From: Macrostomum lignano
Taxonomy: Eukaryota
Direction of reading: 5' to 3'
DNA: 64,000 nucleotides
Assembly (NCBI GenBank): GCA_002269645.1
Contig: NIVC01001884.1
Coordinates: forward strand, 1-64,000
The position numbers were made by a program, and so were the translations under genes. The notes under the pieces are model-generated. The model had not been told where the DNA came from. It saw only the letters and a program-made list of their open reading frames with translations, and made no database searches. Of this stretch, positions 5,781 through 57,400 are shown one piece after another. Position 1 is the first letter of the stretch; each line of letters starts with the position of its first letter.

Positions 5781-11794
<6,014 letters not shown>

Positions 11795-13243
11795 AGTCCA
11801 GCTGCTGCCAGGGCTAGCTCCCTGCCAAGTTCTGGGCTTGAACTGACACTGATTCTCGATTGCTTGTCTTCACCAGCCCTGAATGTCCTAAACTCAAAAT
11901 TGATATTGCTTGTGTTAGTTAAGTCGGGAATTTCAAGTCTGTGGTCCCTTCTCTGACGGGTGATTCCGATTGAAATGGTCTGGTTTAGCGACCCGCTATT
12001 TTCTTCAGCCGAGCCATAAGCTATAGGAGACACTCAAAAAAGTTACCAAAAAGCCAATAATGGCCATAGAAACTCTCAGGTAAAAGCTCTTCTCTTTTGG
12101 TAAGCCAAAAGTTTACAGTCTCAATAAAACAATGCCCTGTGGTTGTTGATTCTGACGCAGAAATGCTAGCAGCAGCCTCTCTCTCGTATTAGTGGCCAAT
12201 TATAAACTTAACCAGTTGGTCCATACCATTGCAACACAGATTTTTATGCTTTCTTTTGATCGCTCGAATCCGTTTTTGTCGAATAATTAATTACACATTT
12301 ATTTTTAGTTTATTCTGTTAGAGTGTTGCTCAAGTAAAGCTATGCTATTTTTTTCATTTTTTTGTAAATACGTCCGATTGTATTCGAAACTTCCTAACAG
12401 GCTAAATTAATAATGGAATTAGTTTTTATGTTCCCACATTACTGGGTCGTTACGTGTGTTAGCAACCATGCGCCATCGGTAACTCCAGCTGGCAGGCAAC
12501 ATCAACTACCCTCAGCCGGTACAGAAGGCGCTGACGCTGCAGGCACCCAACCATGTGACGCTGCTGTCTTTAAGAACTCTCTATGACAGCGTATTTTTGT
12601 TACTATTGTTACTGTTGTTACATGCTGAAGAGAACAGTTTGCATTTGCTTAAATACATACATGTTTAAGAAACTAATGTGATTGCCGAAATTAACTTAAT
12701 GACATGTCATGAAGGGGAAACCTGCGTCAAATTTCATGATTCCACGCAGTGCTGCTAAACTTCCCAGCGAAGGCCGTATTGAGGAATGAGTGGTACGAAT
12801 GAGCCGTAACAGGTCCCCGACTCGAGAACGACCTACGCACGAGTGCTTATATGTAGGTACTTGTTGGTCCGCCTCTCACCAAAGTCCCAATTACAAATTG
12901 AGAGAGCATGTTGAAGCTGTCATTGGGCCTGCGCACCTCTTTCGTTTACTTTTTCCTGAGATACTAAATAGTCCAATTGTCCAATGGTCCACGCAATCAT
13001 GCAAGAGACAAAATTATACAACAGTAAGAATCTATGTATAGGTTTTTATTTTTTCAGTATTATTAATATTAGCGTGAGCGAGTTTTACAGGTACTTCTCT
13101 ATACAATGCATACAACAGTAAATAACGCAGGGTCAACTGAAGTCACATGGAATACCGCACCGTGCCCAGCTGTACTTCTATAGTCAGAAGTTTACAGCAG
13201 ATCGCACGCCAGACTGAATATCTCAGAGACAAGCTAGCTGCAC

Positions 13244-15474: not shown

Positions 15475-18400
15475 ATTAAGTCTTGAGCCCGGACTCGGAC
15501 CGTCAAACGCCCCCGCTGCCGGCTCCGCTGGCCCGACGACCGCGGCGCCTGGTGTCCAGGATGCCGGTCCTCTCGCACAGCCTGTTCTATGCGTGATGAG
15601 CCTTGGCACGGGGTCGAGCGCGGCGTTATCCAAAAGGCCCGAAGCAAGGCCGGCCCGACACAATACCCCGGCAAAAGCCAGCAGGATGACACTCAACCTG
15701 CAGCACCTGGACCTGCAGCTGTTGTGGAGAAATCATCAACTTCAAGCGGTTTGTGGCGGTGTTCTGCAACGGCTGCTCCGGCTGGCTGCACCTCAGATGC
15801 TCCGGGCTGCGCAGCAGTCGCTGCTGGAGCGCCCTCTACTGCGCCCTGCTGTGCTGATACGGACGCGAGGACCAACGTCCCGACTGGCACTGCGCAGACT
15901 GACCGTCCCGCCTCGCCCGCGGCTCCCCGGCCCACAGCTCAGGAAGCCTACCCGGCGAGCTGCCGCCCCCCGACAGCACGCGGCGGCGTGCTCATTCTCC
16001 TTCGTGAAGACATCGCCTCCAGCAACCCCCGCGGCTCCACCTCGCCACGTGCACGGCCCGTGGGTACGTGGGTAACGTCGGGCTGGCCAGTGTGCATGCC
16101 CCACCCACCAGCAGCCAGCGGCCCGGGGAGACGTGGGCCCCGGACTTCAACGAAATCCCGGTTTCAAGTTTGTATAATTGGCGGGGACTTCAACGCGCAT
16201 GGCAGTTGGGATGCGGACGCGCCCAGCGACGATGGCGGCGCCACCCTGGAGGAATGGGCCGCGGGCTGGCAACTGTCCCTCGCCAACAAACCGGCCGTCG
16301 CCACCCGCATTAACCCTAGCACCGGCGGCAAGTCCGCCCCGGACTCGACCTGGATCCGCGGCCCTCCTACCGTGTCCGTGCGCTCCTCCTGGCACGTCGA
16401 CGAGGACCTCGGCTCCGACCACCTGCCGATCTGCTTTACCGTCAGGAAGCGTCGGAGGACCCCCAGCCCAGCGCCCTCGCTGGTCTTTCAAGAGAGCCGA
16501 CTGGGAGAGTTTCAAATAAATCGCTCCAGAGGACCTGCGAGCAGCACCCACACTGTCGCCGCAGTAGCGACCGCGCCTATAACCTCCTGTGCGCGGACAT
16601 CCTGCGCGCCGCTGACGCCTCCATCCCGAGGGGGTGCAGACCTGGCGCGCAGAAATCCTTCTGGAATGAAGAGTGCGACACCGCTTAAAAGAACTGCCGC
16701 GAAGCCCGCAAGAACGTCGCTAACACCCCTTTGGATAGCAACCTTGAGCTCTTCGGACAAGCACGCGGTACGCTTCGCAAGACAATATACGAAGCTAAGC
16801 GCAGCCAAGGACTACTTAAGAACACTTAAGTAGTCCTTGAGCGCAGGTTCTGGGATCAGACCTGCAATGACCTCGACCTCAACTCCGACATTTTCCGCAT
16901 ATTGCGCAACATCCGTGGCGACGGCCCCGCGGCCCGATCGAGCGCCGCCATCACGTAAATCACCGGCTCTGGACGCACGCGCATCGCCGTCACCGATCGC
17001 GAAAAATCCAACCTCTTCGCGGGCATCTATGCTTCGGAATCCAGACTCGAGCACGGCGAGAACGATGGGCGAGTCCGCGCGGAAGCCAACTGCTACCTCA
17101 AAATTTACCGCAGGGCGGCCCAGGACTCCCCGGTCAAACGCGACTTCTGCACCGGCGAACTTAGGACCGCCCTCCGCCGTCTCAAATCCGGGAAAGCCGC
17201 CGATGGCGTCGCAAATGAAATGCTTAAGCACCTCCCCGCCGCCGCGGAGCAACGTCTCCTAGATCTCTTGAACGATGTCTGGAGAGGCAGCGCGATCCAG
17301 GCCGGGTGGCGGCGCGCCACCATCGTCCCTATCCCTAAGAAGGGCAATGACCATTCGCTACCCACCTCCTTACGTCCGATTGCTTTAAACAGCTGCATTG
17401 CTAAAACCGCGAAACGCCTGGTCCAGCAACGTCTTAGCGCCTGGCTCGAATAGAACAGCATTCTCACGCCCGAACAGGCGGGCTTCAGAGCCGGGCGCAG
17501 CACCGAGGAGGTCCTTGCTCATGTCTGCCAGAGCATCTTCGACGGCCTGGAGAGCCTCCGATCCGCTATGACTCTTCTCGACTTTAAGAGGGCCTATAAC
17601 AGGGTCTGGATTCGCGCTCTCTGTCTTAAGATCCGCAATGCGGGGTCCCCCGCGGTTCACCCTGTGGATCTACCGTTTTCTTCGCGACCGTCGCGCCTCC
17701 GTCAGATGGGTCGGCAGCCTCAGCAGGGAGCGGGTCGTCCAAGACGGCCTTCGCCAAGTCAGCGTCCTGCCCCCCCCCTCTGGTGGCTTCTCTACATTAA
17801 TGACCTCCGGGCGGCAGTTGGCCTCGCCAGTCCTCTGTGCGGGATCAACCTTCACGCCGACGATAACAGCCTCATTGCCACGCATCGAAAACTGTCTGAA
17901 TGTGCCAACATCCTCCAACGGGAAAGCCCGACTTAACCTCAACATTGAAGGCCGGGACCTCAGTTTCAACCCGAACCCGCGGCTACTTGGCGTTACCATG
18001 GACGGTCAGCTGAATTTCGCGCAGTACGGTGCCGAAGTCAGACGCCGCATGGCGGTCCGTCGCGCCGCCTTGGTAGCCATTGCCCACCGGCTCCGGGGCC
18101 GACCAGAGGGTCCTCCGCACCGCCTACATCGCCACGGTCCGCGCCTGCGCCGACTACGGCAGTGCCATCTGGCTCAACGGCGCCGCACCGTCTACCAAGC
18201 GTTCTATCAAGCAACTGCAATCCATTTGCGCTCGCCTCATTACGGGCTGCTGCAACACCACGCCGAATCACATCTCCGTCCGCCTCGCGGGACTGCCGCC
18301 CATCAGCACCGTCACTATCGAGCGCGCGGCTAACCTCGCAGAGCGGATCGCCAGGCTCCGCCCCACTGCCCAGCTTTCAAGACCCTGTCACAAACCTGCT

Positions 18401-30969: not shown

Positions 30970-32550
30970 ATGATGTCGCAGCCATGGTACGCTCAGTATC
31001 CCATGCCGCCCGGCTGGGAGATGAAGTACGATTTCACCAATAAGCGCTACTTCTACATTGACCACACCAACAAGGTTACTAGTTGGGACGACCCGCGCCA
31101 GAAATACTACGCTGCCGGCGCGGCCCCTTCTGCTGGCGCCGCCGGTTCATCGACATCTGGAGCCCGATTGTCGCCTCGACCGGTGTCGCCAAGGCCGGTG
31201 CAGCAGCAGCAACAGCAGCAACAGCAGCTGCTGTACCAACAGCAACAGCAGCAGCAGCGTCAGATGCAGCAACAACAGCAGCAGCATCAGCAGCAGCACA
31301 GACAGCAGCAGCGCAGTCGTCGCGAAAGCAGCAGCAGCGAAGATCGGAACAGTTTCACCGCCGAAGTGACCAGCGATGATTATGAGATTACTAGGCTGCA
31401 GCTCAGATTTCCCAATGAGGACGTGGCCAAACTGCGCCAGGCCTTGGCCGCCTGTCACAGCAGCGTGGACGCCGCCACCAAGTGGCTCAACGATGCCAAG
31501 GCCGCCGAGGAGGCCAAAAAGCACGAGGCGCAACTGCTAGTTAAGGCAAAAAATATACATTTTGAGTTTCCAACTTGCAGTCTGGACGTTATTAAGGATC
31601 TGCTAAACCAGTCAAATAGCTCTGTACCCAAAGTGAAAGCTCAGCTGGCTAGTATGGGCTACAGCTCCGGGACTGGAGCCTCGAGCTCGCGGCCGCAGCA
31701 GCCACCAGCCGCTTCGTCGTCATCGAATTCGAGCCACCCACCGCCGAAGGCTGCGCAGCATCACCAGCCTAAGAAGTCCATGCAGATTCAGCACGGCAAC
31801 GAAGAAGAGGAACTCGCCACCAAAATTGAATGCTTGTACGAAGCTTTCCCCAGCGTGAGCAAGGCTCAAATCAAGCGCACTTTGCTGTCCTGCCAGTCGC
31901 GAATGTACGAAACTCGGCAGGAACTAAAAAATCTCGTCTCCAACTCGGCCGCGACAGGTAGCGCCGAAGTTGGCGCCGGAAGCGGCTCCAGCGCTCCTGT
32001 TGGCGATGGCGCCCACGCCTCCAAAGCCTCGGCTGCTGCTTCCGCCGCCGTCGTGGCTAAAGATGCCGAGGAACGCCAGCGGAAGGCTCGCCAATCCGTC
32101 GAGGCGAAGGCGGAGACCCGCCGAGAGACTTTGGTGGACCAGATGATGGCTGAGTTCCCCGGCGTTGCCAGCGTCAGCGGCGTCACTGAGCTGCTTCAAC
32201 GGTACTCTGACGATGCCGACAAAGTGCGTGCCGCTCTTGCCGCCGAGGCCGCCACTCCGGCTGTCTCAGCCGCTGCTGCACCGGCGGCCTCCGCTGCTGA
32301 AGCTTCCACCAGCTCGTCTGCTTCAGCAGCTGCTTCTAAAAAGTACAAGAAGACATCAAAGCAGACGGCTAAGCCGGGAACGGTCGCGGCTGTAGCCGGC
32401 AGCTGCAGCAGCAACCGGGCTGGCCCGGACCCGGCCATGCGCCAGGGCCCCGACCCGGAGCTGCTAAGCGGCCCGGACCCGCAACTGCGACTAGGACCCG
32501 CTGCCAGTCTGGCTAGGGGACCTGACCCCACCCTGCTGCTGGCGCACTAA
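30970..32550 (+). CDS. WW-domain protein with polyQ, four CUE/UBA-like repeats and C-terminal GPDP repeats (526 aa)
   Basis: WW: PPGWEMKYDFTNKRYFYIDHTNKVTSWDDP. Four helical repeats centred on FP (LRFPN, FEFPT, EAFPS, AEFPG), each followed by an amphipathic helix. Single long GC-rich ORF; acceptor-like CTAACTAG sits directly before the ATG. Confidence 0.85.
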   Translation: MMSQPWYAQYPMPPGWEMKYDFTNKRYFYIDHTNKVTSWDDPRQKYYAAGAAPSAGAAGSSTSGARLSPRPVSPRPVQQQQQQQQQLLYQQQQQQQRQMQQQQQQHQQQHRQQQRSRRESSSSEDRNSFTAEVTSDDYEITRLQLRFPNEDVAKLRQALAACHSSVDAATKWLNDAKAAEEAKKHEAQLLVKAKNIHFEFPTCSLDVIKDLLNQSNSSVPKVKAQLASMGYSSGTGASSSRPQQPPAASSSSNSSHPPPKAAQHHQPKKSMQIQHGNEEEELATKIECLYEAFPSVSKAQIKRTLLSCQSRMYETRQELKNLVSNSAATGSAEVGAGSGSSAPVGDGAHASKASAAASAAVVAKDAEERQRKARQSVEAKAETRRETLVDQMMAEFPGVASVSGVTELLQRYSDDADKVRAALAAEAATPAVSAAAAPAASAAEASTSSSASAAASKKYKKTSKQTAKPGTVAAVAGSCSSNRAGPDPAMRQGPDPELLSGPDPQLRLGPAASLARGPDPTLLLAH

Positions 32551-41902: not shown

Positions 41903-44900
41903 CATAGATAATAAAAACACTAGATGGGTCACTCGCCTATTTCATGAATAAGCTACTTTCAATTGGGCGTCTGTATAGAGTTTTTTTGGATGTATTTGTG
42001 CACCAAGTAAAATTTTAATATTATATTTAGATTATGATGTAGACAAAAAAGTTTTGACATTTCAGACCCTCATTTTTCAATCATTGAAGTTTATTTACAC
42101 CGACGGAAATGAAAAAAAATTGAACAAAAATGTGGGTTTGGTTTAAACTTGTTATAATAGAGGCATGCGCATTGCACTTAGATGTATATATATTTTGATG
42201 CACAGGGTCGTATCAACTTATCATGTATACACAGATTAAAAGAAGATTTCACAAAAATAAACATTATACTCGTACATATAAAGCATTTGGGCAAGACAAA
42301 AGCATTCTGAAAACAAAATTTTACTTTATAGTTTAAGCTAGCTACTTACCCGATAGTTGAAGCAAATGTTCATGAACAAATTGAAGTTAACGAATGTGAC
42401 AAAGAACGAAATACAATTAAATATTTAATACAAACACGAAGGTTAATTCAGTTTACTCATCTTTCTGCTTGCTGAGCATCGCGCTGTCCTATCCTTCAGC
42501 GGCTTGGCCTCACAGCGGCACCAGTGATGCAGTCTGAGACGAGCGAACTTGACGCACAGTTGCTGCCAGACGATCTCCGTGTGCACGGAGCACGAGGGGA
42601 AGGTCACATTTGCGTGTCGGAAGCATCTCAAAACTGAATGGCTCACGTGATTCTGCAGCAATGTAGTCTTTGATAATGAGCCAAATAAAGATTCCAACAG
42701 CATAAAACTTTCCAGAACTGCTTCCGATGGTGCTGTCAATCCAGTGTGAACGGCACTGTACTGCTTGTTGGCCAAGTGAACTCCAGATGGGATTTGAGCG
42801 GTCAGAGTTTCCTTGCGATCCAGGCAATCCAGTACACCACTTTTTGCTAACACGTAGCCAGCAACATATTCCATGGCTTCGATTGATGTGTCAGGAGAAG
42901 CAAACGGCTGCAAACTGCACTGGAGCTCTCATCTGTGCGTGTCGTCGGCACGGTTTCGGCAAAAGATGCGCTTGATCCGGCTGGTAAATTTAGCGGTTTA
43001 GTAATGCATGCTGCTGTGACGCCAGCAGAGCACTGGTCGCTGGAGCAATTTCCAGTTTTTGACTCGGCTTTCATTATGCCACTCGCAGAAATCGATCGTA
43101 GGGCACCAATAAAGGCAGGAAGCTCTGGCTTTTCATTGAACCCATTGCGACCTCTGATGACGCTAAATAGATTCTACGATTGAAAATTTAATTTTTTAAA
43201 AAGTTGTTATTTAATAATCTCTAAGCTACAATAATTAACATGTCTAGTGGTAAAAGGCTGTTTAACGCACCTCAACGTGATCCTGTGTTAGTCTCCTAGT
43301 GCAGATGTATTGAAAATCGCCGTTTTGCAGCAGCGATCTGGCCAGACTTTTGATCGATGAGATAGACAGCAGCCACGCTTCCTTGAACTTCATTGTAGCC
43401 TTTTGCTTCCTTCCGCTTTGAGGTCTAAATTTCCAACTGTGTAAGAAGCTTTCAGCTGCCTCCAATTCTGTAATCTGCTCTTCAAGAATATCTCGAGAAA
43501 GGGGGTGCTTTAGACCCTTATCGAATAAGTGAGCTGAGTTAAGAATGTTAAATATGCCATTAATTCTATCTAAAAACTCTGCTGTTTGCTCTCCATCGGA
43601 TTCTATTATTTTGTGATACACCGAAGTTCGGATTCCACTGGCGACTGAATGGCTGAAAATCTGCGCCGCGAGAAATACTTTCATTTTGTTTCTAACCTGT
43701 AGGTTGAAGTGACTGTCGCTTAACCTTGGTGCCAATTAAGCTTGTTGCAACTGTCGGCCTGATAGAAGTCCGTAATATGCTTCCATTTTGCTGTTTTGCA
43801 ATCGTCGAACACAATGTCGTTCTTGAACAAAGCATTTCGCGCATTTTTCAGGCAGTGAGGGATATCAATGATGACAAAAAACAGGCTCGTTTGTCACTGG
43901 GTGGTGCAGAAACGGCTTGGAAGAGCTGACCAACTTAGATAAGTAGCTCGACTGGCTTGTCTCTTGGTCTGCAACCAAAGCTACAACGATAATTCCTGCA
44001 TGATGACACGCCGTCAGACAACTTTCAATCGCGTTACGAAAACCTTCCTGTCCGAGACTCCGATTGCACAGGGTAATATGCAATCGACTGCTTCCAGTTG
44101 TGCAAAATACCGCGAACTACGCCTACTACCGCTTCGTCTACAACTTATGGTGCATCCGCTTGAGCAGGATTAGTCTCAAAGCCAATTATCTTGTCCTTGT
44201 GACTGGCTGTAACGCACACATCCTGACAAGCTCATTCCATCAAAGCAAAGAGTGGCCATTCGCTCTTTCTCTGTGCAGTCTTGCAACTTTTTTCTCATCA
44301 GCTTCATGGTAACTTCACAAACGCCTTCTTCCTGTAAAAACAATCTGATGCGCCGCTTAATTGACGTCTCTAATGGAAATGGCATCTTCCACTGATCTCG
44401 CAGAAGTCGGTACGCGGCAGGACTTTTGTGATGCACTTTAATAGCAGAGCAGCTAGATGTCTTCGACAGCCCAACGCATGCCACGGTGGCGAGACTTTGT
44501 TTGCTTCATAGAGCTCTGCACTAGACGGTGGAGGGCGCTGCTGCTCGATCGTCTTCTCCTGCAGACACAGCTTTCGTCGTAGGTTTCCAGCTACTTTGCT
44601 GGACGATGCATGCAGTCGTAGAAATGATGCAGAGCAAGACGCAGTTGGTTCTTGTGGAGCAGCGCTAGCTAAATCAACTGCCATTGAAGGAATCTGATCT
44701 GCTTCTGGAACTGCGTCTTCCACGTCAAAGCGCGACAGAACAGGTGGGTACGTATTATCAGCCGCATCGTCACTCCGAATTATTTCTAGTGGCTTCTCCC
44801 TGATTAGTCGTGGCAACACCAGCTCTCTGTCAGGAACAGCATCCCACCGTAGCCTTGTACTTCGGTCATGGCGTAGTCTTGGGCAATTGTATGCCTCGTC

Positions 44901-45462
44901 TGTAAAATGCAAGCTGCATACCTTCCACTTCATTTTCCACAGCTTCTCGAGTGAAATGGCTCGTAACTCCAGCATTGATTGCCACTTCAATGCTATGGAC
45001 TGATTCTTCGGAAACTGGTGCATGCGAATCGGGATGCCATCTTCGTTTACAGAGGTACTAGTGCTGGTACAAGTCGCCGCACAGCAATCTTCGCTTGTGT
45101 ATTTCAACTCTTCGATATTTGCCAGCACTCGGTCTTCATGCGTTCTTCCTCCGGCAGCCATTTAGACAATTGTTTTTTACTTGCTTAAATGAAAACGAAT
45201 TTGCGCTCTAGCAAAGGAGAAAAGTCAAAATATATATACTCCTTACTTTCGTTCGGATATCTAATAGGAAAGCCATGATGAACCCCTACTAGTAAGCTTG
45301 ATTTCGATGCTTGAAACTTTTGTCTATGGCTTAAACCATAGCACTGACGTGGGAGAACAAAAATCTATAGTCTTGCGCGTTCATTTGCCCAGAAGAGAGT
45401 AGGCTATTCAGACATCGAGCGAATTTGCATTAAGTGACCCATCTAGTGTTTTAGTATCTGTG
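41903..45462 (-). mobile_element. P-element superfamily DNA transposon
   Basis: Imperfect TIR of about 31 bp, CA(T/C)AGATA..AAAACACTAGATGGGTCACT; exact 8-bp TSD GTCTGGAC at 41895-41902 and 45463-45470. Confidence 0.92.
42443..45161 (-). pseudogene. THAP-domain P-element (THAP9-like) transposase, frameshifted, with one clear intron 43270-43174
   Basis: THAP CCAATC...HQFP...W...VCSLHF; SPAAYRLLR, LCFDG, VADQ, KMKVFLAAQIFSHSVA, TQDHVE|NLFSVIR, MEYVAGYV. Confidence 0.9.
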
Positions 45463-45870
45463 GTCTGGACTAAGCTTTCTGCATACGGCCCTATGTTTTA
45501 ATGCATTATATTTATCTTGCCCGGGTGATAAACGAGTTTATTTCCCGCTAGCCGGGGGGAGGCAAATAAACAAACTTTATATTTGGTCATAGATAAAATC
45601 GAAATTTACCGCAAATTACACAGATTGAACAAGGAAAAGTAACAAAACAATTACGTAAATTTGTCAATAATAAGTTAATATTAAGTTACTTTTGATTTGA
45701 CGAATGATAGTAAATCCTAATTCTAGGATAATTACTCGAAACTAATAACTACACTGTTGGTCTCACCGTTGACATCAATCCGCATCTTCTTTTTAGTAGG
45801 AATATCCGCATCTCGCTGCACTATAAGTTTCCTAGTTGGCCGCAAACTAAGAACCTTACATATGATTAAT

Positions 45871-46710
45871 AGTAACTCAAACGAGGTAGAATATGCTTGG
45901 ATGTTATTTACCGATCAACCATATAATAATATTTACTACTACATTTTCAACGTTTGTATTAATAAGTAAATAAGCAAATAAGCGAGCTACAAGCAGGGAG
46001 AATAAGTCTGAGACACTACGGTATAACTAAGCTACTCAAATACTCCTATTAATCTATTATAAATATATATATAAATTACGCCTATCTACTTGGTCTGAGA
46101 CCGATACGCTACTATTCATAAATCTATAGTCATGGCAGTGCTCAGTCTTACCCTCAGGTCACAGGTGTCTGCAGAAGCGGTCGTCGTGATTTGCAAACTA
46201 TTAAGCAATCCAAAAGTTAATACAAAGCGTGTAAAAGAGAGCGAAAAGAGAGTGAAAAAAGGGTAAAGTTTTTAGCATTTAACCCCTCGCTTATTTATAG
46301 TAAACTTCCCCGATGAAGTCCCTGTAAAACTGTCTGCGTTATCATTTCCCACGTCTTCCAGCCACCGCGCAATTCCGGCCGATTCTCACGGTTCCCCTTT
46401 CTCGTGCGATTTCTGAAATGTCTCTGTTAAAAATGTAATTGAACCCCGCCCCACATAAAGGCATACAACCCCTCTAAAGTGGAAGCAGACTTTTAGGGCG
46501 GCCTGCACTCGCCCTTTGCAATGCCGTCATCAAGCACTTGTGGCTTTTTGTAAGAGTGCAGCTGTCCACAACTGCTACACTCCACCACGCTCTGATAACA
46601 ATGCAATTCCCTAATTATTGCCTAATTTAGTCCCTAATACTACTTCCTAAAATAGTCCCTAAATAGTCCCTAAGGCCTACATGCATATGAAATTGAATCC
46701 TTATATTACT
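45871..46710 (-). mobile_element. Putative 3' LTR (about 840 bp) of the env-pol Gypsy-type element
   Basis: Follows the polypurine tract GAAAAAGGGGG (46721-46711). Termini AGTAA...TTACT are inverted complements; TATA-like CTATAAATAAG near 46300. Confidence 0.6.
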
Positions 46711-46929
46711 CCCCCTTTTTCAAAATGTGGTCCCCACATTTGCATTTAGTAAAATATGGAGATGAAGAAATCATTGAGACTAGTATGAAAGCAAATAGCT
46801 GTAGGTATGAGCGAATGATTTTAATCTCGTAAAGCTTTTATCATTCTGGATATAGCGATGTAGCTCGTTCAATCTCACCTCAAAACCATCTGCGATCTTC
46901 GATTTATGTTGTCCGACTCAAATTGAGCT

Positions 46930-47304
46930 TCAGTTGTCCTCTGAGCTGTCCTCTTCAGTAGTATTCGCATTACCCTCGTTTCTTAGGAGAGAAAGTAGTT
47001 TGGTGCAGCAGATAACTATCAGCTCCCAAATAATGCGTCCCTCGCGATATTCGTCATCGTACATATCGTCAGCGAGATTGCGGAGCTCCGTCTTGTATAA
47101 ATCAATCGGCCGTGTCGGTGGCGGCTCTCTGAATTCTACTTCAGAAACTCCCGGTTCGTATAGTCTACGTGCTTCCGTTCGGATATCTTCCAAGATGGGT
47201 ATTACTCTTTCCTTATAACCCGGCAGTAGGGGGGAGAACCATTGAAAGAAATTGATCCTATGGTAGATCCATGCTCGGCGCTCAAAGTCGTTCAGGATAT
47301 TCAT
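46930..47304 (-). CDS. Orphan 124-aa ORF between integrase and PPT
   Basis: Intact ATG-to-stop ORF starting 4 nt after the integrase stop; no recognised motif. Confidence 0.5.
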   Translation of the reverse strand: MNILNDFERRAWIYHRINFFQWFSPLLPGYKERVIPILEDIRTEARRLYEPGVSEVEFREPPPTRPIDLYKTELRNLADDMYDDEYREGRIIWELIVICCTKLLSLLRNEGNANTTEEDSSEDN

Positions 47305-47308
47305 GGTT

Positions 47309-50300
47309 CTAGTTCTTGCGTGGACGCAAAGTGAATCTCTTACAAGCTGATTCCTCTGTTACTTCTGTCTGCGTGGCGTTGGATTTGTGCAATCTGATTT
47401 TATGCGCATCATGTGTTGTGTTGCCATTGGTTTCTTCAGAGAATGGTGGAACTGCTATTGGTGGGCCTGACAATAGTCTCTTCAGCCTATTAGCGTTCAC
47501 TAGTCTGGCTTCGTCTTTAAACGTATCGTTTAAATTCTGAATTGCAACAGTTGAATCACCAATTATCTTCTGAACTTTAAATGGTCCTTCATAATTGGTA
47601 TCGAATTTTCCTTCCTTTACCGGCTTTTCTAAGTAGACAATATCTCCTTCCGATAATCTATGATTTCTTCGTCCTTTGTTTGCTTGCGCACTCTGTCGCA
47701 ACCGCTCTTGGAGCAAGAAGTGCCCTGCAATGTCCCAGCTTAGCTTCAGCGAGCTAGCTAATTTTTTGACGTAACTAGGAGATTCATCATATACTGACAC
47801 TTGTTCGTTCAGAACCTTCTCTGTTGGTGTTCTGTATTCATGTCCAAAAATAAGCTGATATGGCGAAGTGCGAAGGTTCTTGTTATAACTGATATTTAAT
47901 GCTAGGACTGCTGTTGGAACATATCTAGCCCACTCGGTCTGAGTGTCATGCACGTATGCAGTTAGGACATTCTTGAGAAGTTTGTTGTAGAGTTCCACCG
48001 GATTCGCGTGAGGTGTGTAATAGCTGGTGTACACTATCTCACATCCTATCATATCCGCCATCTCCTTCATCTGCACACTCGTGAAGTAACTGCCATTATC
48101 CGTCACTATCTTCCTTGGAATACCGAATGTGGCGAAGATATGACTGAACAATTTGTTTACAAGCACTTCCGTTGTTGGTTTTCGAATCGGAATTGCAAAA
48201 GCAAATTTTGAGAAGCAATCCTGCACTGTCAATATGTAATTAAATTCATGTCCTTCAACTTCTGACGTTACGAGCTTTCCAATGATATCCATTGACATCG
48301 TATCCCAAGGCTCCCCTTGGATCTGAGCCTTGAATGGAATTTTATACGTCCCCGACCGCTTTGTACTCAAACACATGTGTGACAACTTCTTACGTACTTC
48401 TGCATGTCCTGCCGCATTGAATTCCAATAGTAATGTCGCGCCATGCGCTCCAAACATTTCTGCCATCCGAGATGTCCTGATAATTTATCCTCATGATAAT
48501 GTCGTAACAGTGCGAGCTGATACACTTTTGGAACAACCAATTGGACTCCAGTAATGCTTTCCCGATACAGCGTGTTTCCTTCCATCCTGTACTGATGAAT
48601 ATTCTTCCTGATAAATCTATCCTCTTTCGATTTCCCATTCGGTAAGTCTCCACCCTCCATCACCTTAATCAATTTGCTCAGAGAGGAGTCTTTCCTCTGT
48701 TCTTGCTGTATCTTCTGTGTCGATGGGACAGGATGTATTAAGTTGATTTCGTCTACATCTGCTGGTGTAAGTCGGCTTAAATAATCAGCAATTGCATGCT
48801 TCGTCGAGCTTCCAGGACAGTAAGTTATCTTCATCTGGTATTCAGAAAGAAACAGAACTGATCTCGTTACTCGTGAGTTTGTTTCCATAATACCTCTATC
48901 TTTTATTATCGTCAGCAACGGCTTGTGATCGACTTGCACCGTAAATCGAGCTCCAAAGAGTAGCCTGTGAAAGAATTTTACTGCTGAAACAACTGCCAGT
49001 AGTTCCCTCTCGGTGACTGAATAGCGAGTTTCTGCCGATTGTAATGTCTTGGAATAATAGGATACAACTCTCTCTCTTCCTTCATCATCCTTTTGCGTCA
49101 AAACTGCTCCCAATGCGACATCTGATGCATCTGTTACTAGTTTATATTCTTTTCTTACGTCTGGAAAAGCTAACACGACGTCTTCTTGTAAACATCTCTT
49201 CAGACGATCAAAAGCCTCTTGACACTTTTCTGTCCAAGTGAATTTCTTTGGCTGTGATTTCTTTCGCAGAAGCTGATATAATGGAGCCGAAATCATGCTA
49301 AAATTTTTCACATGTCTGCGGTAAAATGTCGCAGCTCCCAAGAATCTTTGCAACTGTTTTTCGTTCTTGGGTGTGGGAAAGTCAATTATTTTTGTCCTTA
49401 GGCCCTGCTGCATCGCGATGCCAGATTTACTTAGCACAAAGCCTAAATACGGCACTTTGTCCTTGGCAATTGCAGACTTCTTAGCTGATAGTTTCAGTCC
49501 CAAATTGCGCAGTCGCGTGAACAAATCTTTTCAAGCTTTATGCATCTCGTTGAACGTGCTCCCTGTAAGCAGTAGATCATCAACGTATCCGATAGTATTT
49601 TTGAGACCGGCAACCACCATATTTTTCACCTTTGACATATATATCGGACTAATATTTAATCCTTGTGGTAGGCGCGTAAATTGATATTGCGAACCTGTAT
49701 ACGTCGTGAAGGCGGTTAGATGTCGACTATCCTCATCCAATCCAATATTAAAGAATGCATCCTTAATGTCAAAAACACAAAAATACTTCGTGTTCTGTAG
49801 TCGGCTCATCATGTCCTGGATTTTTGGAAGACTCTGAGCAGGTTGCCTGAGCATGCGATTTACTAGTCAAAAGTCAACTATAAATCTGAAGCGGCCATCT
49901 TTCCTTTTCACAAGAAGCGTTGGCGATGAAAAACAGGAGTCCGACGGTTCGATTACCTTTGCCTTGAGCAATTTAGCGATCTCATCGTCATATGCAGATT
50001 CTAGCTTCATTGGCAAAGGATAGGGTCTCCGATTGATTATTCCTTGGCCTGGTTTAACCTCCAATTTGACGCTTGGTCCTGTCCATTTCCCAATATCCGA
50101 ATCATGTCCGGAAAACACGTCAGAGTATTCCAATATAAGTCTATGCAGTTCTTATGTCTGTTGCTGATTCAAATCTTCGCCTTTTTCTATCAGATTCCAT
50201 TTTTCTTCTGGGGTTAGCCTCTCCTTTTCTTCTGTACAGATATAATCGTGCTGTGCCGCTTGCTCCACCAAGTCCCTTGTTCGACCAAGCTTCGTTCCTC

Positions 50301-50900
50301 TAACCAGCTGAATTTCTTCTTGACGATGATTCATTATAGGAAGAACCATTTGATCATGCTCAAATTTGATCATGGAAGAACCATTGTGGTTCACCAAAAC
50401 TGGCCACATTTCGTATCCATTTCCTTCAGCATTGAATTCATTCGGTTCGATCCATAAAGTTCCTCGATCCACTTGTGCCAAAATTTTGACTGGTACTTTC
50501 ATCACACTATGCGCAGGAATTCTAATATTCTCGAGGAGTGCCACTTCGTGTGATTCCTGTTGTTCGACTGACCCTACCATCGGGTATTCGTATTTATGGA
50601 TCACTATCTTCCTGTTTCCGTAATCTATTTGGACTGGAAGAATATTCTTTAGAAGGTTTACTCCCAGTATTATGTCATAGCTTGGATTCATTTCTTTGAT
50701 GATCTGAACTTCGACCATATGCTGTTTTCCTCCTATCTCTAAGTGAATTGTACCTCTTCCTATGAACTGAAGCTGGGAATTTCCCACTCCTACTGCAATT
50801 ATATCACTCCTGTTCCAATCTTTTACTGATCACAGTCAGCGTCGCTCCTGTATCGATCAAGGTATGTACCCTCTTCGTCCTTGTGGTGTCACAACCGGTA
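47309..50900 (-). pseudogene. Ty3/Gypsy pol (PR-RT-RNase H-IN), several frameshifts
   Basis: PR LIDTGA (50843-50860); RT RRPYPL, DIKDAF, LPQG, YVDD; RNase H TDASD, ERELLAVV, VDHKPL; IN H..GH...CHTC, SMDIIG, TDNG, NPVE, YEGPF. Confidence 0.95.
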
Positions 50901-53900
50901 AAGTTATTATGGATTTCATAACACTCCCCAAGGTGAATATCGAATGCTGTTTCCTTATTTGTTTCTCACTAGGGGGTATCGGAATGGTTGTCTCTGCTTG
51001 TGGTGCTTGAACTCCAGTCAGATTAACAGTAACATAATTTTCTGTTGGCAAGTTCGGAACCACATCTGTGTGCTGCTGTATAGCCGCTTCTTGTTTCTTT
51101 GATAGTGCAATTCTTCCTGTCCTTTGCACATAAAAGAATTTTATTATTCGCAGAATTATATAGATCCACACAATTGCGCATGTTGTCGTAATAAACAGAC
51201 TGTAGAAACTGATATGGAAACCAAAAGTCGCTCGAAAAAGCATTCCGAAAAGTCCGTTAGCTAGCTGCAGTGGCGAAAAATCTGCTAACCAACTCATATC
51301 AGTCCCATTTTCTGGTTCACCTACGACTCCAAATGTGTGTAAAAGTACGTTATTGTTCTCTACGAATATAGCATTTTGCAGTCAAGTTTGAACTGCGGGC
51401 ATTCAAATTAGACAAGAAGGGAAGAGCCAAATTTCAGAATCCGTCCCTAAGTCAAGCAGAACTTTATGTCTGTGGCACAAACTGAAACACACTGACGGGC
51501 ACTCAATTTAGACAACGGGCATTCAAATTAGACAAGCAGCGGAAAGTCTGTGTGCCAGAGAGAAAGACCATGGACAATCCGATTCGTCGCTATGCAAGAA
51601 TTTCCAGAGAGAAGCGTGACCTCATTATTGGGGCATGCCAACGTGGTGACTCTGTGGCTGAAATTGCCAACATGTTGGATGTCAAGAGATCATCAGTGTA
51701 CAACATCTGGAACAAGTTTGTTCAGGATGGCCAGCGATACGCGCTACCAAGGGGAGGAGCCAGGCACCGTCGAATGAATCCTCCAATGAAGGACCATCTG
51801 GCCGCCTTGTTGAATGCCAACCCTCTGATGACACTCGGGCAAATGCGGGAATCGCTTCTGTCTGAGTTTCCCACAATACCAACGATTGACATTTCAACAG
51901 TCTCTCGAGCAGAAATCTGAACTCCTGAAGTTCAGAGAGAATTGGCTGTTCCGCCTCCTGACATGACTGCCGTTCAATGGAGACTGATGGTGCTGCAGAG
52001 GTGCGGGGAAATCGCGATGGATGACGTGACTCCACTGAAGTGCGTTCACTGGTATCAGCACACGCTCCGCTTCATCCCACGCTGTCTGGCAAATGAAGAC
52101 ATCGTTTGAATTCTCTATCAGATGAGACTCTTGTGAGACTCTTGTTCATTGATGTGCTGAGCACCCTGTTTTGTTTGTTCACACATGCTTACTTTGTTAT
52201 AACTTGTTCTTATCTTCATAGTTCAGGGTTCACAGAATGGTTGTCTGACAACAGACGCAACACGATCTTGAATTGCCCAGCCAATGCGCCTGAGAACTTG
52301 TCTAATTTGAATGCCCCTTGTCTAAATTGAGTGCCCACCAGTGTGATTTTGTCTAGGCCATAGATAGCATTTGTGCCAGCAGTGAGATCTGGTCAAGCGT
52401 CTAATTTGAATGCCCGCAGTTCAAACTTGACTGCAAAATGCTATAAATCCAACAAGTCAGCAAGGTGGATTGGCGTTCGAAGGTCACTTATCTGCACATC
52501 TGCGATAGGATGATACACTCCTGTCGTTGTCTTAATAGTTAAAGGCTGAAAGTCACTTCCTAAAGATAAGACATGCACTTCATTTTCCATCCGTGCCACT
52601 GTTCGTTTTTGTCGACTTCGAATGGGTCACCTTCGATTGAGACGTAATATGGAATCACATTTTTACATGCTTCTTTGTGAACATCTGCTGTGATTATTTT
52701 TGTTTTCGTGTTCAAAAATGCCTTTATCGTTTCATTTTTCTCATTAAACTGGACTGGTGGTTGCGCATAACAAGCGTCACGTCGTGCTTCATGAGGCAAG
52801 AATGTTATGTTGAAAATCTTCTTGCACGGGTACACCACAACGAATTCTCGGGTCACTACTGCCTCAATTTCTTCTTTTCCAATTATTCTCCTCATCACCT
52901 TTGTCGGGCTATTAATTAATGACAATCGTAGATTCTTCACTGTGGCCTTGAAATTCTGACAAGCAAGTTTTATCGTATTACGTTCCAATTTTCGTAATCT
53001 CTGCAATTCCTTAATCTCCACAGCTTCAAATTCAGCGGCGATCATTGAAGCCGATTCTAGTTCGAACTCAAGACTTCTTTTCTTCGTTGCCTTTAGATCG
53101 GTCGACTCTAGTGAAGACATCTTATTCCTTTTCAGTTTGCTTTTCATCAACTTCCTGAATAGCTTTGTCTTGCTGGAACTCTGTTTCTTGTGTGCTTGAT
53201 GCGCAATTATTAGGCGTAGTCTCTCTGTATCTGACTCGTCTGATGCCAATTGGATGTAAACGCCTTGCTCAGCTCTAAATAAAGTTATGTTCACTTCACT
53301 GCAATTTAGTGTACGTTCGACAGGTCGTTTAGCGAACTGGAATGCCATCGTTTGATCATCCGACATGAGAAACGTTGAATGTAGAAATCCTTCCTTAGTT
53401 GAAAGGGCAATAATTCACAACTCCGATTTTTCTCCACTTGCCAGACCATCGTGAATGCTCTTTCACCTTCGTAATACAAATAATGAACATCCGATTTTTG
53501 GGCTGATTCTATCTGCATCGATTCCCAAGGAGGGTGCTTATTCATGACTGCCATAGGCAAGGCCATCACTTTGTCAATAGGCATCCGCATCTCACACATT
53601 CCTGACCTGTAAGCGCATTCTTCGATCCGGAATTTCATGCTACTCATTGCTCCATTCCGTAAATAGAATTTTATTCCTGTCATCACGGAATCTACTGTGC
53701 CGACATTCGTCCCTACCGCTCCTGGAAAGCTTATCCATTTTATCTTTGGTGCAGAATCTGTCCTGTATAACGTAGATCCATCATTACTCCATACCTCGTG
53801 TAATTCTCCGATGCTTGATTTCCTTTCTTCATGCCATCGCTTGCAGTTCTCACTTAAAACCTCATGGGGTGTAACCTTGAAGACAATGCTGTGGTGGATA

Positions 53901-54430
53901 TTCATCACTGTTCCCCACCACTTTGCTTCCACACGAATCTCTTCTCGATGACATACAACCATTTTCCCATTGAATGTTTGCGTATTCGGCTTAAATATCG
54001 TAAAGTTAATGTGCTCTGCACTATTCTGGTTCCTGTTTAATTCTGGACAGGTGATTTCTTCTGGAAGTCGGAATACCTGCTGTCCGACCGATCGGTCACA
54101 GACTAGTCCGTAGGTCATTTGATTCGACGCAGAGCCTTGCAACTCGGTCTCGGCCCGAACTCCTCCTAGGCTTAAAAGCATGAAGACGAAAAGGAAAATT
54201 ATCTTCCATGACCATCGCTCCGCTGTCCGAGGTTTCATTTCCATGACGTTAATTTCTGGGAACTCAAGAAGCTGAAGTTCCTCATTACCACCGGTCTGCT
54301 CATACTCATGCGCAGAATCTGTTCCTCCGACTGCACCTTGCGCGTCAACCACATTCACTCCTGCTCCTCTTCCTCTTCCGACAGTTCCTCGGCCTCTATT
54401 GATTGATTCCTCGGCCTCGGCCTCTATAAC
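50900..54430 (-). pseudogene. Env-like class III (gB-like) fusion glycoprotein upstream of pol, interrupted by a Tc1 element
   Basis: Hydrophobic signal KIIFLFVFMLLSLGGVRA|E (about 54205-54152), a Cys-rich ectodomain with N-glycosylation sequons, the segment LACQ...NSPTKVMRRIIG...VVYPC...CYAQPPVQF, and a TM segment at about 51215-51150. One frameshift near 53370. Confidence 0.75.
51369..52443 (+). mobile_element. Tc1/mariner-IS630 element, internally deleted (HTH retained, DDE core lost)
   Basis: 45-bp TIR TAGCATTTTGCAGTCAAGTTTGAACTGCGGGCATTCAAATTAGAC, TA TSD (51367-68 / 52444-45); ORF 51552-51920 has a paired-like HTH and a PRGG linker. Confidence 0.92.
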
Positions 54431-54449: not shown

Positions 54450-57400
54450 TTAAAGGCGATATTTTATCTCAGCAAACTTATATTTAGTCTTAAACTCCTC
54501 ACTTTTCAGATATAAATTGGCTTTATAAATGTGTTTCTCATGATAAGTGATGTCGGTATCTTTTGTATATTTGCATGGGTAATTAATATTTATAATTCGT
54601 CTTCTTTCTGCATCTCCAATATTTTGTCTAAAATCAGGCCTGTTATTACATTCGACTATTAGGGTTGCGTGTGAAACAACATTACACTGGCTTGAATAAC
54701 CCCACCACCAGTTAGTAATTTTATTGATGCATTGTTCAAGACACCACTTACTTTTTGACTGATAACCAACCTCTTTTATTAATTTGTGCTAGGGCTGGTT
54801 GTGGCTTGTCTATTTTTATTGGTAAATTTAAACACCAGGACTCAGTGGTGCTGCATAATCAGGTCCTAGAGTTCTAAGAAGTAGTTTGTCATCAACCCCC
54901 TTGCCATTTCCCCCAGCGCCATCGAAAATTATAAAATTTTCAACATTCTTACCCATTAGAGCTGTGGCTATAGCTCGTTACGGATGCCCAACTCTTTCTG
55001 TTTTCTAGATTTGGATGAATCTGATTGTGTAGATTAACAATGAAGTTGTAGTCCTCGTCACTCACTTCAAGTACATCCGAGTAATTATATCCAACATACT
55101 TAGTAACATAGTCGTTATATCTATGCTTGCGAAATTCGCCAGTTAGATCATATACTCCATCGCCAAACCCTAGCAAATTCCATTTCATGTCAAATTCAAG
55201 TTCATTGTTAGCAAACCTCTCAAATTGAACAAAGTAGTTACCTGTTTGAGTTTGTTGGCTCCTTGTATTGAATTTATATTCTTCATTGTACTCTGTAGTT
55301 TCTTTTCAAGTGCTTTTAACTTCTCTTTATCATCACCCTTAATTGCAATTTCGAGTCTAGTCTTTCGGTGGTTTAACTCACTGCTAGCAAAGTCTGATAT
55401 TTTAAGAAATATGCCATTTATACTACTTAGTTCTCTCCACCCGTCGTCATCAAAATAGTAAATACCATCGCTATTATAAATGAAGTACTTATGGTTGTCT
55501 CGGGGTTGTCTCGAAGTGGCCTGGTAGGTCTTTGAATCCCACCGCTGCCACCAGTGTTGTACTTGTGCTTCTCCTGCTGTCCAGCACAGTGGTTTGGGCT
55601 CTCCGTCTTCTCACTCGGAAGCATTCTTAACTCTCAGTAGCGTAGGTAGTGCTGCCACCAGTTCATTTAGGTCTCGGCCTTCGATGAGGTGAGCTTCCCG
55701 TTGGAACGAAATAACGAAGTCAACGAACTCAGCACCGTGTGCAGATTTGCAGCTCAACGTAACAGGCGTCTCGTCAGCAGTACCTGCCGGGCTTCGTGGG
55801 TGAAGGGAGGGCTGTGTTAGCCTCTCGTAGGCTCGGGTTTGGCTTTAGTAGGGTCTCAGTCAGACCAATAGCAGAGAACTCAATGTACGCAGACACTTAG
55901 AGAACGGGTGACTCAGGCTCAGACAATAGCGCACACGGGATCTTAACAGATTCTCTGAAGACTAGAAACTCGAGAAACTAGAAGCTCCTTGACGGAAACA
56001 AGGGGAAACGAGTCCTATTTATAGCCAGGATTCTCCCGCGCACAAGACCTCGTTACTTGTTCTATTTTTAGAACTGACGTCACTTGAGGTCTCCGGACAG
56101 AGTGCGCCAGGCTGTGACTCAGTGGCTATTTTTAGCAACATGAGTCACTCCTCTCAGAGAAGGGAAGGGCCTTAGGCACGTGATTCTCCCGGTAAACAGG
56201 ACCAGCGAGTGCAGTAAACATGTTTACTGTACTTTAAGACTCCAAGAACGCAAGATCTGTCATATGACAGAGGAAAACGAAAGGGGAACAAAACAGAGAC
56301 AGCCCCCAGCAGAGAGGCTGAGGGCTGAGAACAGAGGCGCAGTAAACGAGCAGAACAGGAAAAGGGGGCAACAAACAGACAGACAAGGGAGGCGGGAAGC
56401 TGACCAGCGGCAGACAGCAACCCAGGGCGAGGACGAGGGCGAGGGAACTGCTGACAAAAGGGGGATGCCTAACATTTAACTAGCGGCTCACTACATAAAT
56501 GATATTGTTCTTCTTATATGCCTAAACAAATTGGTAATGTTAACGTCAGTGAAATTATCATCAAGATACTCAATCCTACCATAGTTATCATATTTGCTTT
56601 TCCATTCCTTATATTTACCATAGTTTTCTTTACTGCCCGTTTATTTAGTGTACCTATTGTAAGTAATCCTCCTGTGCATCAGCAGAGCTGGCACTGGTGC
56701 TATTCCACACCTTTTTACATGACTCGGAATCAAACACATCATAATTTGCTTTTGACCAATCAGTGAATACTTTGTACATTTCATTGCTACTGTCTATGTT
56801 GCGGAGTATGAGTGCTACCTTGTACCTCGATTGATAATCTTAGGTTTTTGTGCTGCATTATACTTTGAAATATTTGAAATAACAACTTTGAAATTCCGTC
56901 ACAGTTGGGGGTGGAACGGTGCTTTTTAGTGCCTCTTTTTCGGATTCTTGGTTTTCTTTTTTATCCTGTGGCTTAATTAATCTATTTATCTCATCAAGAA
57001 TTTCATCTGGCATGTCTATTAACCCTTTGGGCTTTATATTTTTGTATTCCTTAATTTCACCATCGACATAAAAGAAACCTGGTGGAGCAAATAACAAAGC
57101 TGATTTATCAAAACCCACGCTTTTTTGAAGTGTTACTTTCAGTCGATCTACCTTCTTTAAGTAAAGGTGATGCCCCTTGTTTGTTTCTACAATCCAATCA
57201 CAATGATTCATACATAATTTATTCAACTCAGGGCATAGGTCAGCTTTATCAATATCGATGACAGAAATATTTGAGTTTTTCGTATCTACGAGCTATCCAA
57301 ATCATGTCTTCATCTGGTCGAAGTGGTAGGGAGTTTGAATTCCTTTGTGCTTTAGTTGGCATTCCTTGCGGTATTTCTTCGTCTTACTATTCCATTTTAT

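Follow-up and report, generated by a model that had tools for sequence, protein, structure and literature searches.

An envelope gene between gag and pol in Ty3/gypsy elements of the flatworm Macrostomum lignano and its possible translation as part of one polyprotein

Structure of the element

We analyzed positions 1 to 64,000 of contig NIVC01001884.1 from the flatworm Macrostomum lignano (hereafter the window) and studied a long terminal repeat (LTR) retroelement on its minus strand in which the envelope gene (env) lies ahead of the polymerase gene (pol). Read from 54403 to 45822, the minus strand holds an RG-rich stretch, an acidic linker, a signal-like segment, an Env ectodomain, a transmembrane (TM) helix and a tail, followed by protease (PR), reverse transcriptase (RT), RNase H (RH), integrase (IN), a small open reading frame (ORF), a polypurine tract (PPT) and an LTR. 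All the pieces named in the initial annotation were recovered in the order it gave, although it placed the end of the element at 45871 and the LTR ends at 45822. The element is cut on its 5' side at about 54404. The features are as follows, with C103 denoting another copy of the family in the same genome.

54344..54403, minus strand: RG-rich (nucleocapsid-like) C-terminal end of Gag, 96% identical to the C103 frame from its residue 449
54215..54343, minus strand: acidic linker from Gag to the Env signal, in the same frame in the window and C103
54152..54214, minus strand: putative internal signal peptide with a basic n-region (from hydropathy), with predicted cleavage after GVRA
52446..54151, minus strand: Env ectodomain, part 1, predicted class III fusogen of gB/nyamivirus type (PF24664; fold), with two frame breaks
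near 53070-53090, minus strand: dibasic cleavage-like site in the Env ectodomain
51367..52445, no strand assigned: Tc1/mariner-type DNA transposon within env, foreign to the element (inverted ends; helix-turn-helix ORF; missing from C103)
51199..51368, minus strand: membrane-proximal end of the Env ectodomain, identical to C103 across 51164-51368
51136..51198, minus strand: Env TM helix (from hydropathy), then basic residues
50947..51135, minus strand: cytoplasmic tail or linker of about 60-70 residues (from the TM-to-protease spacing)
50155..50946, minus strand: aspartic protease and spacer (DTG motif at 50843-50875; PF13975/PF13650 on C103; comparison with copies C103 and C262)
49237..50151, minus strand: reverse transcriptase, interrupted by stops (PF00078; YVDD at 49576-49590)
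48838..49236, minus strand: RNase H (PF17919, PF17917)
47312..48534, minus strand: integrase with H2C2 finger, core and C-terminal part (PF17921, PF00665), with one frame break near 48370-48480
46930..47304, minus strand: small 124-codon ORF after the integrase
46709..46721, minus strand: polypurine tract (from sequence)
45822..46705, minus strand: 3' LTR of 884 bp, ending TATAAG...CTTATA, with the ends set by the C103 LTR pair and a 5-bp duplication

Among the proteins of the window, Pfam identified Monjiviricetes_fusion in env (E 1.2e-11, above the cut-off) and RVT_1, RT_RNaseH, RT_RNaseH_2, Integrase_H2C2 and rve in pol. No LTR and no gag lie between env and protease, and within the window the 5' part of the family matches only the 3' LTR.

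The locus is a dead, decayed member of a Ty3/gypsy (Metaviridae) family that has a low copy number. The 1.08-kb Tc1/mariner-type insert at 51367-52445, overlooked in the initial annotation, has perfect terminal inverted repeats of 47 nt and a helix-turn-helix ORF at 51486-51920 (plus strand), and C103 shows an empty TA site at the corresponding position. Env carries two further frame breaks, near 53370-53410 and 52605-52625, and pol contains three stops and one additional shift. The protease has two breaks, a –1 shift near 50877 and another about 55 nt on, near 50820, both private to this copy; the "single –1 shift" by which Env had been said to meet the protease is one of several lesions and not part of the element's design.

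Other copies of the family

Copies were sought in the genome assembly (G000), which gave at least five matches to the junction, at least four to env and at least eight to pol, the window included. LTR matches were at least 41, with 40 of 155 candidates scored, and far exceeded the internal ones (4-8), which suggests many solo LTRs. Looking for the env-protease junction in other genomic copies, a check proposed in the initial annotation, recovered it in two, at 96% identity and with no shift in either.

The more informative of the two is C103. Its LTRs form a pair with 3 mismatches in 881 nt, flanked by a 5-bp target-site duplication, and are followed by a TGG motif resembling a primer-binding site (PBS), which we presume to fit tRNA-Arg. 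The order is LTR-PBS-gag-signal-env-TM-protease, and a single natural reading frame of 1,342 codons runs open from gag to protease. Its first Met is residue 146 and its RG end is near 458; the signal has its hydropathy peak at 512-534, a furin-type motif follows at 888, the TM spans 1154-1183 and the protease Asp is residue 1274. About 450 residues lie upstream of the RG end in the same frame. Pfam gives no recognition of this upstream part, and the Atlas assigns it to clusters of retrotransposon Gag/PNMA proteins (score 0.91, recognition 2922), in agreement with the earlier suggestion that the RG-rich/VNVV stretch is the end of Gag.

As the C103 frame runs through unbroken, the –1 shift is private decay of the window copy; among the three copies covering the site, only the window has it, and C103 and C262 do not. 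In C103 the Pfam protease models begin to match at residue 1268, corresponding to model positions 9-15, so the domain itself would start at about residue 1254-1260, ahead of the shift site. The residues initially assigned to the end of the Env tail thus probably form the first strands of the protease. Further copies cover other parts of the frame: C262 reads from the tail through the protease into RT without a change of frame, with one stop on the way, and the near-identical twins C1666 and C664 do the same from gag to signal, again with one stop.

C103 has lost RT-RH-IN after the protease, and its deletion, from the protease to the end of the integrase, shows no GT-AG ends by eye. In another copy, C1704, gag and env are gone. 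It was considered as a spliced retrocopy and rejected, the join being at a 2-nt microhomology and not GT-AG, with the protease active site lost.

Two features of the C103 locus (772373-785355) were recorded in passing: the copy sits in a tandem satellite with a 21-bp unit, and a mariner with an open transposase frame of 384 codons splits its 5' LTR.

Divergent families and database relatives

The layout extends well beyond this family. An env search of the genome returned 181 matches, and the 150 listed, the window and C103 aside, were 19-39% identical; between families sharing the layout, env identity is no more than 23-29%. Frames no shorter than 2,400 codons contain at least 16 places among these 150 matches. 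We inspected 30 distinct places, which represent about three families and not 30 independent cases. Env, TM and a protease motif stood in one open frame in 19 of them; in nine the protease motif followed across a break, at the same distance downstream, and in two there was none.

Two of the long frames, L052 and L053, were scanned whole, and both hold gag-env-PR-RT-RH-IN in a single frame. One is a frame of 2,538 codons with a weak zinc knuckle at 276, env at 914-1135, PR at 1372, RT at 1694, RH at 1918 and IN at 2142-2315; the other has at least 2,809 codons and the same order. Their RT-RH regions are only 35-36% identical to that of the window, which indicates that the layout with env inside is old. 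The single Gag-Env-Pol frame originally proposed therefore stands for gag, env and protease in C103 and for the whole length in these two sister families, while the window copy itself is broken. The window's own contig also carries a second, divergent env-before-protease element (G000:C1884:74799-78236; L027), some 20 kb past the copy in the window.

In a library of 1.84 billion proteins, env had 71 relatives. Among the 31 longest, 15 matched a protease or RT, in every case with such a match downstream of env in the same chain; seven others had gag-type matches ahead of env, and nine were uninformative. The named relatives among ten looked up came from Macrostomum lignano (P0001, the best, 2,852 aa) and Globodera rostochiensis; the latter protein has env and then protease in one chain, and its env match scores 43 bits versus 146 bits for the M. 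lignano protein. A separate homologue search of env against longer proteins, weak by the tool's own note, gave no matches among 2,214 candidates. Two of the relatives, P0020 and P0029, have two protease-like domains after env.

The envelope protein

The Env ectodomain contains N-glycosylation sites. It had been described as Cys-rich, but its roughly 600 residues include 12 Cys, which is not an especially high content. We modeled the natural C103 sequence with a 52-sequence alignment (pLDDT 80, pTM 0.59) and obtained a long central helix with beta-rich domains. In Foldseek, the best viral match of the model was Nyavirus G (E 6e-25), with herpes gB at E 3e-20 and modest TM-scores (0.38-0.45); chuvirus and entomopoxvirus glycoproteins were also matched. 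By its predicted fold, Env is a class III fusogen of the herpes gB/nyamivirus type, and it would be expected to have membrane-fusion activity.

A signal-like hydrophobic stretch ahead of env is also found in other families. Signal and TM could both be located in 12 of 14 frames, and in these their spacing was 550-850 residues. The nearest Met before the signal is within 11 residues in four of the 14, at 22 in one and at least 49 away in nine, and this lack of conservation favors an internal signal. The distance from the TM end to the protease Asp is 92 residues in C103 and 62-169 in relatives.

Classification and known systems

The pol order is PR-RT-RH-IN, as in Ty3/gypsy (Metaviridae). The best solved relative of RT-RH is Ty3 Gag-Pol, at E 7e-46 versus 8e-23 for the next RT outside Ty3, and the window proteins gave no BEL-type Pfam match; by these matches RT and RH stand nearest to Ty3/gypsy and not to BEL, copia or retroviruses. 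C103 has the LTR pair, PBS-like motif and target-site duplication of a Ty3/gypsy element, and the window copy retains the PPT and 3' LTR only. Gag, env and pol follow one another in that order in C103, with the junction also in the window and C262, and an env of HSV/gB type lies between signal and TM. The Drosophila gypsy errantivirus differs in having an F-type env that occupies its own ORF behind pol, whereas here env is of gB type and precedes pol.

In retroviruses and insect errantiviruses, env lies downstream of pol and is expressed from its own spliced message, which is the textbook plan. The premise of the initial annotation that env lies downstream of pol in the known env-bearing Gypsy elements is not supported: GAG-ENV-POL elements of Ty3/gypsy with a gB-type env have been described from nematodes, bryozoans and flatworms (Chary & Hayashi, eLife 2026, PMC13524379). 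According to the text of that paper, the errantiviruses of Nematoda, Bryozoa and Platyhelminthes have only gB-type ENV and the order GAG-ENV-POL, in several non-monophyletic clades; its table gives nine flatworm and ten bryozoan elements, one of them from Macrostomum lignano, and for this species ENV-POL hits number 93/51 and POL-ENV hits 0/0 (PMC13524379). These elements and the window family are alike in their Ty3/gypsy pol, their gB-type env and the position of env between gag and pol. The element in the window is thus a defective member, in a separate family, of the GAG-ENV-POL gB-type Ty3/gypsy kind, and the layout has already been published. The published inclusion rule asks for intact elements with uninterrupted ORFs; the sister families fit it and the examined copies of the window family do not. 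It is a rule of sampling and not a trait of the kind. The published M. lignano element has a PBS other than that of the window family, which, together with the sampling of intact elements, suggests that the window family is probably outside the published table. In the main text of the paper, figures aside, the words "polyprotein," "fused" and "frameshift" are absent and the wording is of ORFs, which suggests that processing of a single frame is not discussed there (PMC13524379). Nor did we find in that paper an account of how Gag would be produced in excess.

The same paper cites the nematode endogenous retroviruses (NERVs) of Sacco et al. 2022 as having flipped ENV and POL (PMC13524379). BEL/Pao elements with a chuvirus-type glycoprotein (Dezordi et al. 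2020, PMC7642597) are similar in being LTR elements with a captured gB-like class III glycoprotein; they differ in their Belpaoviridae pol, whereas the pol domains of the window and their best solved relative are Ty3/gypsy. In the literature searched, the phrase "gag-env-pro-pol" was not met, and the eLife paper and its preprint were the sole sources with "gag-env-pol." The NERVs reportedly carry a continuous gag-env-pro-pol ORF, a Nyamiviridae-like env and an extra small ORF, and are said to be confined to chromadorean nematodes. Of this continuous frame, C103 has gag-env-PR, and L052 and L053 have the whole. The top viral fold match of our Env, Nyavirus G, parallels the nyamivirus-like env reported for NERVs; the best env relative of the window family is a flatworm element.

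A polyprotein spanning three compartments

Gag, env and protease stand in one frame in the window family, and the frame continues through RT, RNase H and integrase in the sister families. Judging from these sequences, we consider it probable that the element encodes one polyprotein threading from the cytosol through the lumen of the endoplasmic reticulum (ER) and back to the cytosol, with signal peptidase and the protease of the element making the cuts. The genomic RNA would be translated as a single chain, with Gag made in the cytosol. The internal signal, with its basic N-terminal side, would then open translocation, and signal peptidase would cut after its small-residue end; the ectodomain of about 600 residues would be freed into the ER lumen, to be glycosylated there and probably cleaved at its dibasic site. 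Transfer would stop at the TM helix, leaving the tail and PR-RT-RH-IN in the cytosol. Gag would stay anchored to the membrane by the cleaved signal until the element protease frees it, possibly at V-N-V-V-type candidate sites, and Pol would at first be tethered to the Env tail, from which the same protease would release it. With Gag, Env and Pol gathered on one membrane, enveloped particles could bud and fuse with neighboring or germ cells. A V/I-N-hydrophobic motif occurs near domain borders at two places in C103, at two of three in L052 and not clearly in L053, and can serve as a lead only.

Polyproteins of flaviviruses and hepaciviruses and the structural polyproteins of alphaviruses combine a capsid, an internal signal, a lumenal glycoprotein and cytosolic enzymes, which signal peptidase and a viral protease separate from one another. 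The window element differs from the flavivirus and alphavirus systems in that they share no homology with it, use a class II fusogen and do not reverse-transcribe, so the likeness is one of working principle only.

Several observations weigh against a single polyprotein. An equal 1:1:1 output of Gag, Env and Pol is awkward for particle assembly, and the proposed mechanism leaves an excess of Gag unexplained. A Met stands 10-11 residues before the signal in three of the four in-genome families examined (C103, L052 and L028), which gives room for a separate env-pol initiation. The signal and its cleavage site were judged from hydropathy only. No copy of the window family with every gene open was found among the at least four env, five junction and eight pol matches, so the full-length frame is seen only in the sister families. 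The protein-library tally is biased, since only fused forms give long proteins; in addition, protease matches flank env in P0022, and P0002 resembles a chimeric gene model.

The main rival is separate env-pol initiation or splicing: a single DNA frame would serve several messages, with splicing or internal starts giving Gag alone, Gag-Pol without Env, or Env-Pol, and the three-compartment polyprotein would be a minor product. Splicing is used by other LTR elements, such as Cer1. Besides the Met just ahead of the signal, inspection of the window by eye showed a pyrimidine-rich tract ending in CAG immediately 5' of this Met, and the stoichiometry problem would be solved. We nevertheless regard this as rather unlikely, as the Met is far from the signal (at least 49 residues) in nine of 14 frames and families with about 25% env identity would have no need to keep the frame open over both junctions if it were not translated. 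The loss of gag and env in C1704, which might have recorded an env-skipping message, is joined at microhomology and not at GT-AG, and took the protease active site with it. For L052, single contigs in two of four runs span nearly all of the stretch from gag to signal, a weak point as the RNA status of these runs is a guess. Contigs of the four runs (from four studies), covering 30 of 30 bins of L052, list no env-skipping join; since rare forms are lost from contigs and none of the listed pieces bridges the tail and protease, this result was not counted.

The two remaining explanations concern the junction itself. A programmed –1 frameshift from the Env tail to the protease would make Gag-Env abundant and Pol rare, and the window copy does shift –1 at the site. 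Both of the other copies covering the site lack the shift, however, and it sits inside the protease domain, with no X-XXY-YYZ slippery heptamer seen by eye; the junction is in frame in 19 of the 30 places in other families, and the C103 frame refutes the idea for the window family. We therefore rejected this explanation as highly improbable. A one-off deletion, recombination or misassembly fusing the env of one element to the protease of another is more improbable still. The family is indeed prone to internal deletions, as C103 (without RT-RH-IN) and C1704 (without gag-env) testify. Yet the junction recurs in the two further copies, in about three divergent families of the genome and in the database proteins from Macrostomum lignano and Globodera rostochiensis, and the gene order is in print (PMC13524379). 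These independent copies and relatives refute a fusion or misassembly and confirm the original claim that env precedes pol.

Among these explanations, we thus favor the single polyprotein. A fuller version for flatworm GAG-ENV-POL elements, in which Gag, a class III fusogen and Pol would be made as a single chain that passes through the ER membrane two times, the cleaved signal retaining Gag and the Env tail carrying Pol, is a tentative proposal that falls somewhat short of probable and would need a yet undescribed control of the Gag:Env:Pol ratio. If true, a flavivirus-like strategy would be new for reverse-transcribing elements, and the continuous frame would be new outside nematodes. A fusogen within the Gag-Pol chain would be another solution than an env expressed from a spliced message downstream of pol. 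Several divergent families of the genome have long open frames, and one of these families is covered over its full length by public contigs, which makes the question open to observation. The interest that remains lies in the three-compartment processing, the window locus being a fossil that adds only one more family.

Accessory ORFs and neighboring sequences

The LTRs of the window family end in TATAAG...CTTATA rather than TG...CA (45822-46705). The small 124-codon ORF after the integrase is 88-98% identical in all four other family copies tested, one of which has a frame break; it had no match in Pfam or the Atlas and none to the downstream ORF of L052. L052 has a different ORF after its integrase, of 157 codons (L052:208-681, minus strand), with a weak RING-finger match below the cut-off (PF21362, E 0.0018). 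The difference suggests an accessory slot occupied by unrelated small genes in different families.

Directly upstream of the element's cut, at 54450-57300 (minus strand), lie a decayed D5_N primase-like sequence (E 3.5e-7) and weak Prim-Pol pieces that are unrelated to the element, perhaps the remains of a Polinton-like or DNA-virus insertion. A scan of the window for tRNA genes found none. On the other side of the element, 43260-45161 (minus strand) holds a THAP-domain ORF (E 3e-12), after which come broken pieces resembling a transposase, which we take to be of the P-element/THAP9 type. Elsewhere in the window are a long simple repeat with a 4-bp unit (7690-11900), a piece of a LINE-type endonuclease (15487-16833) and an ORF with a WW match and weak CUE matches (30970-32550).

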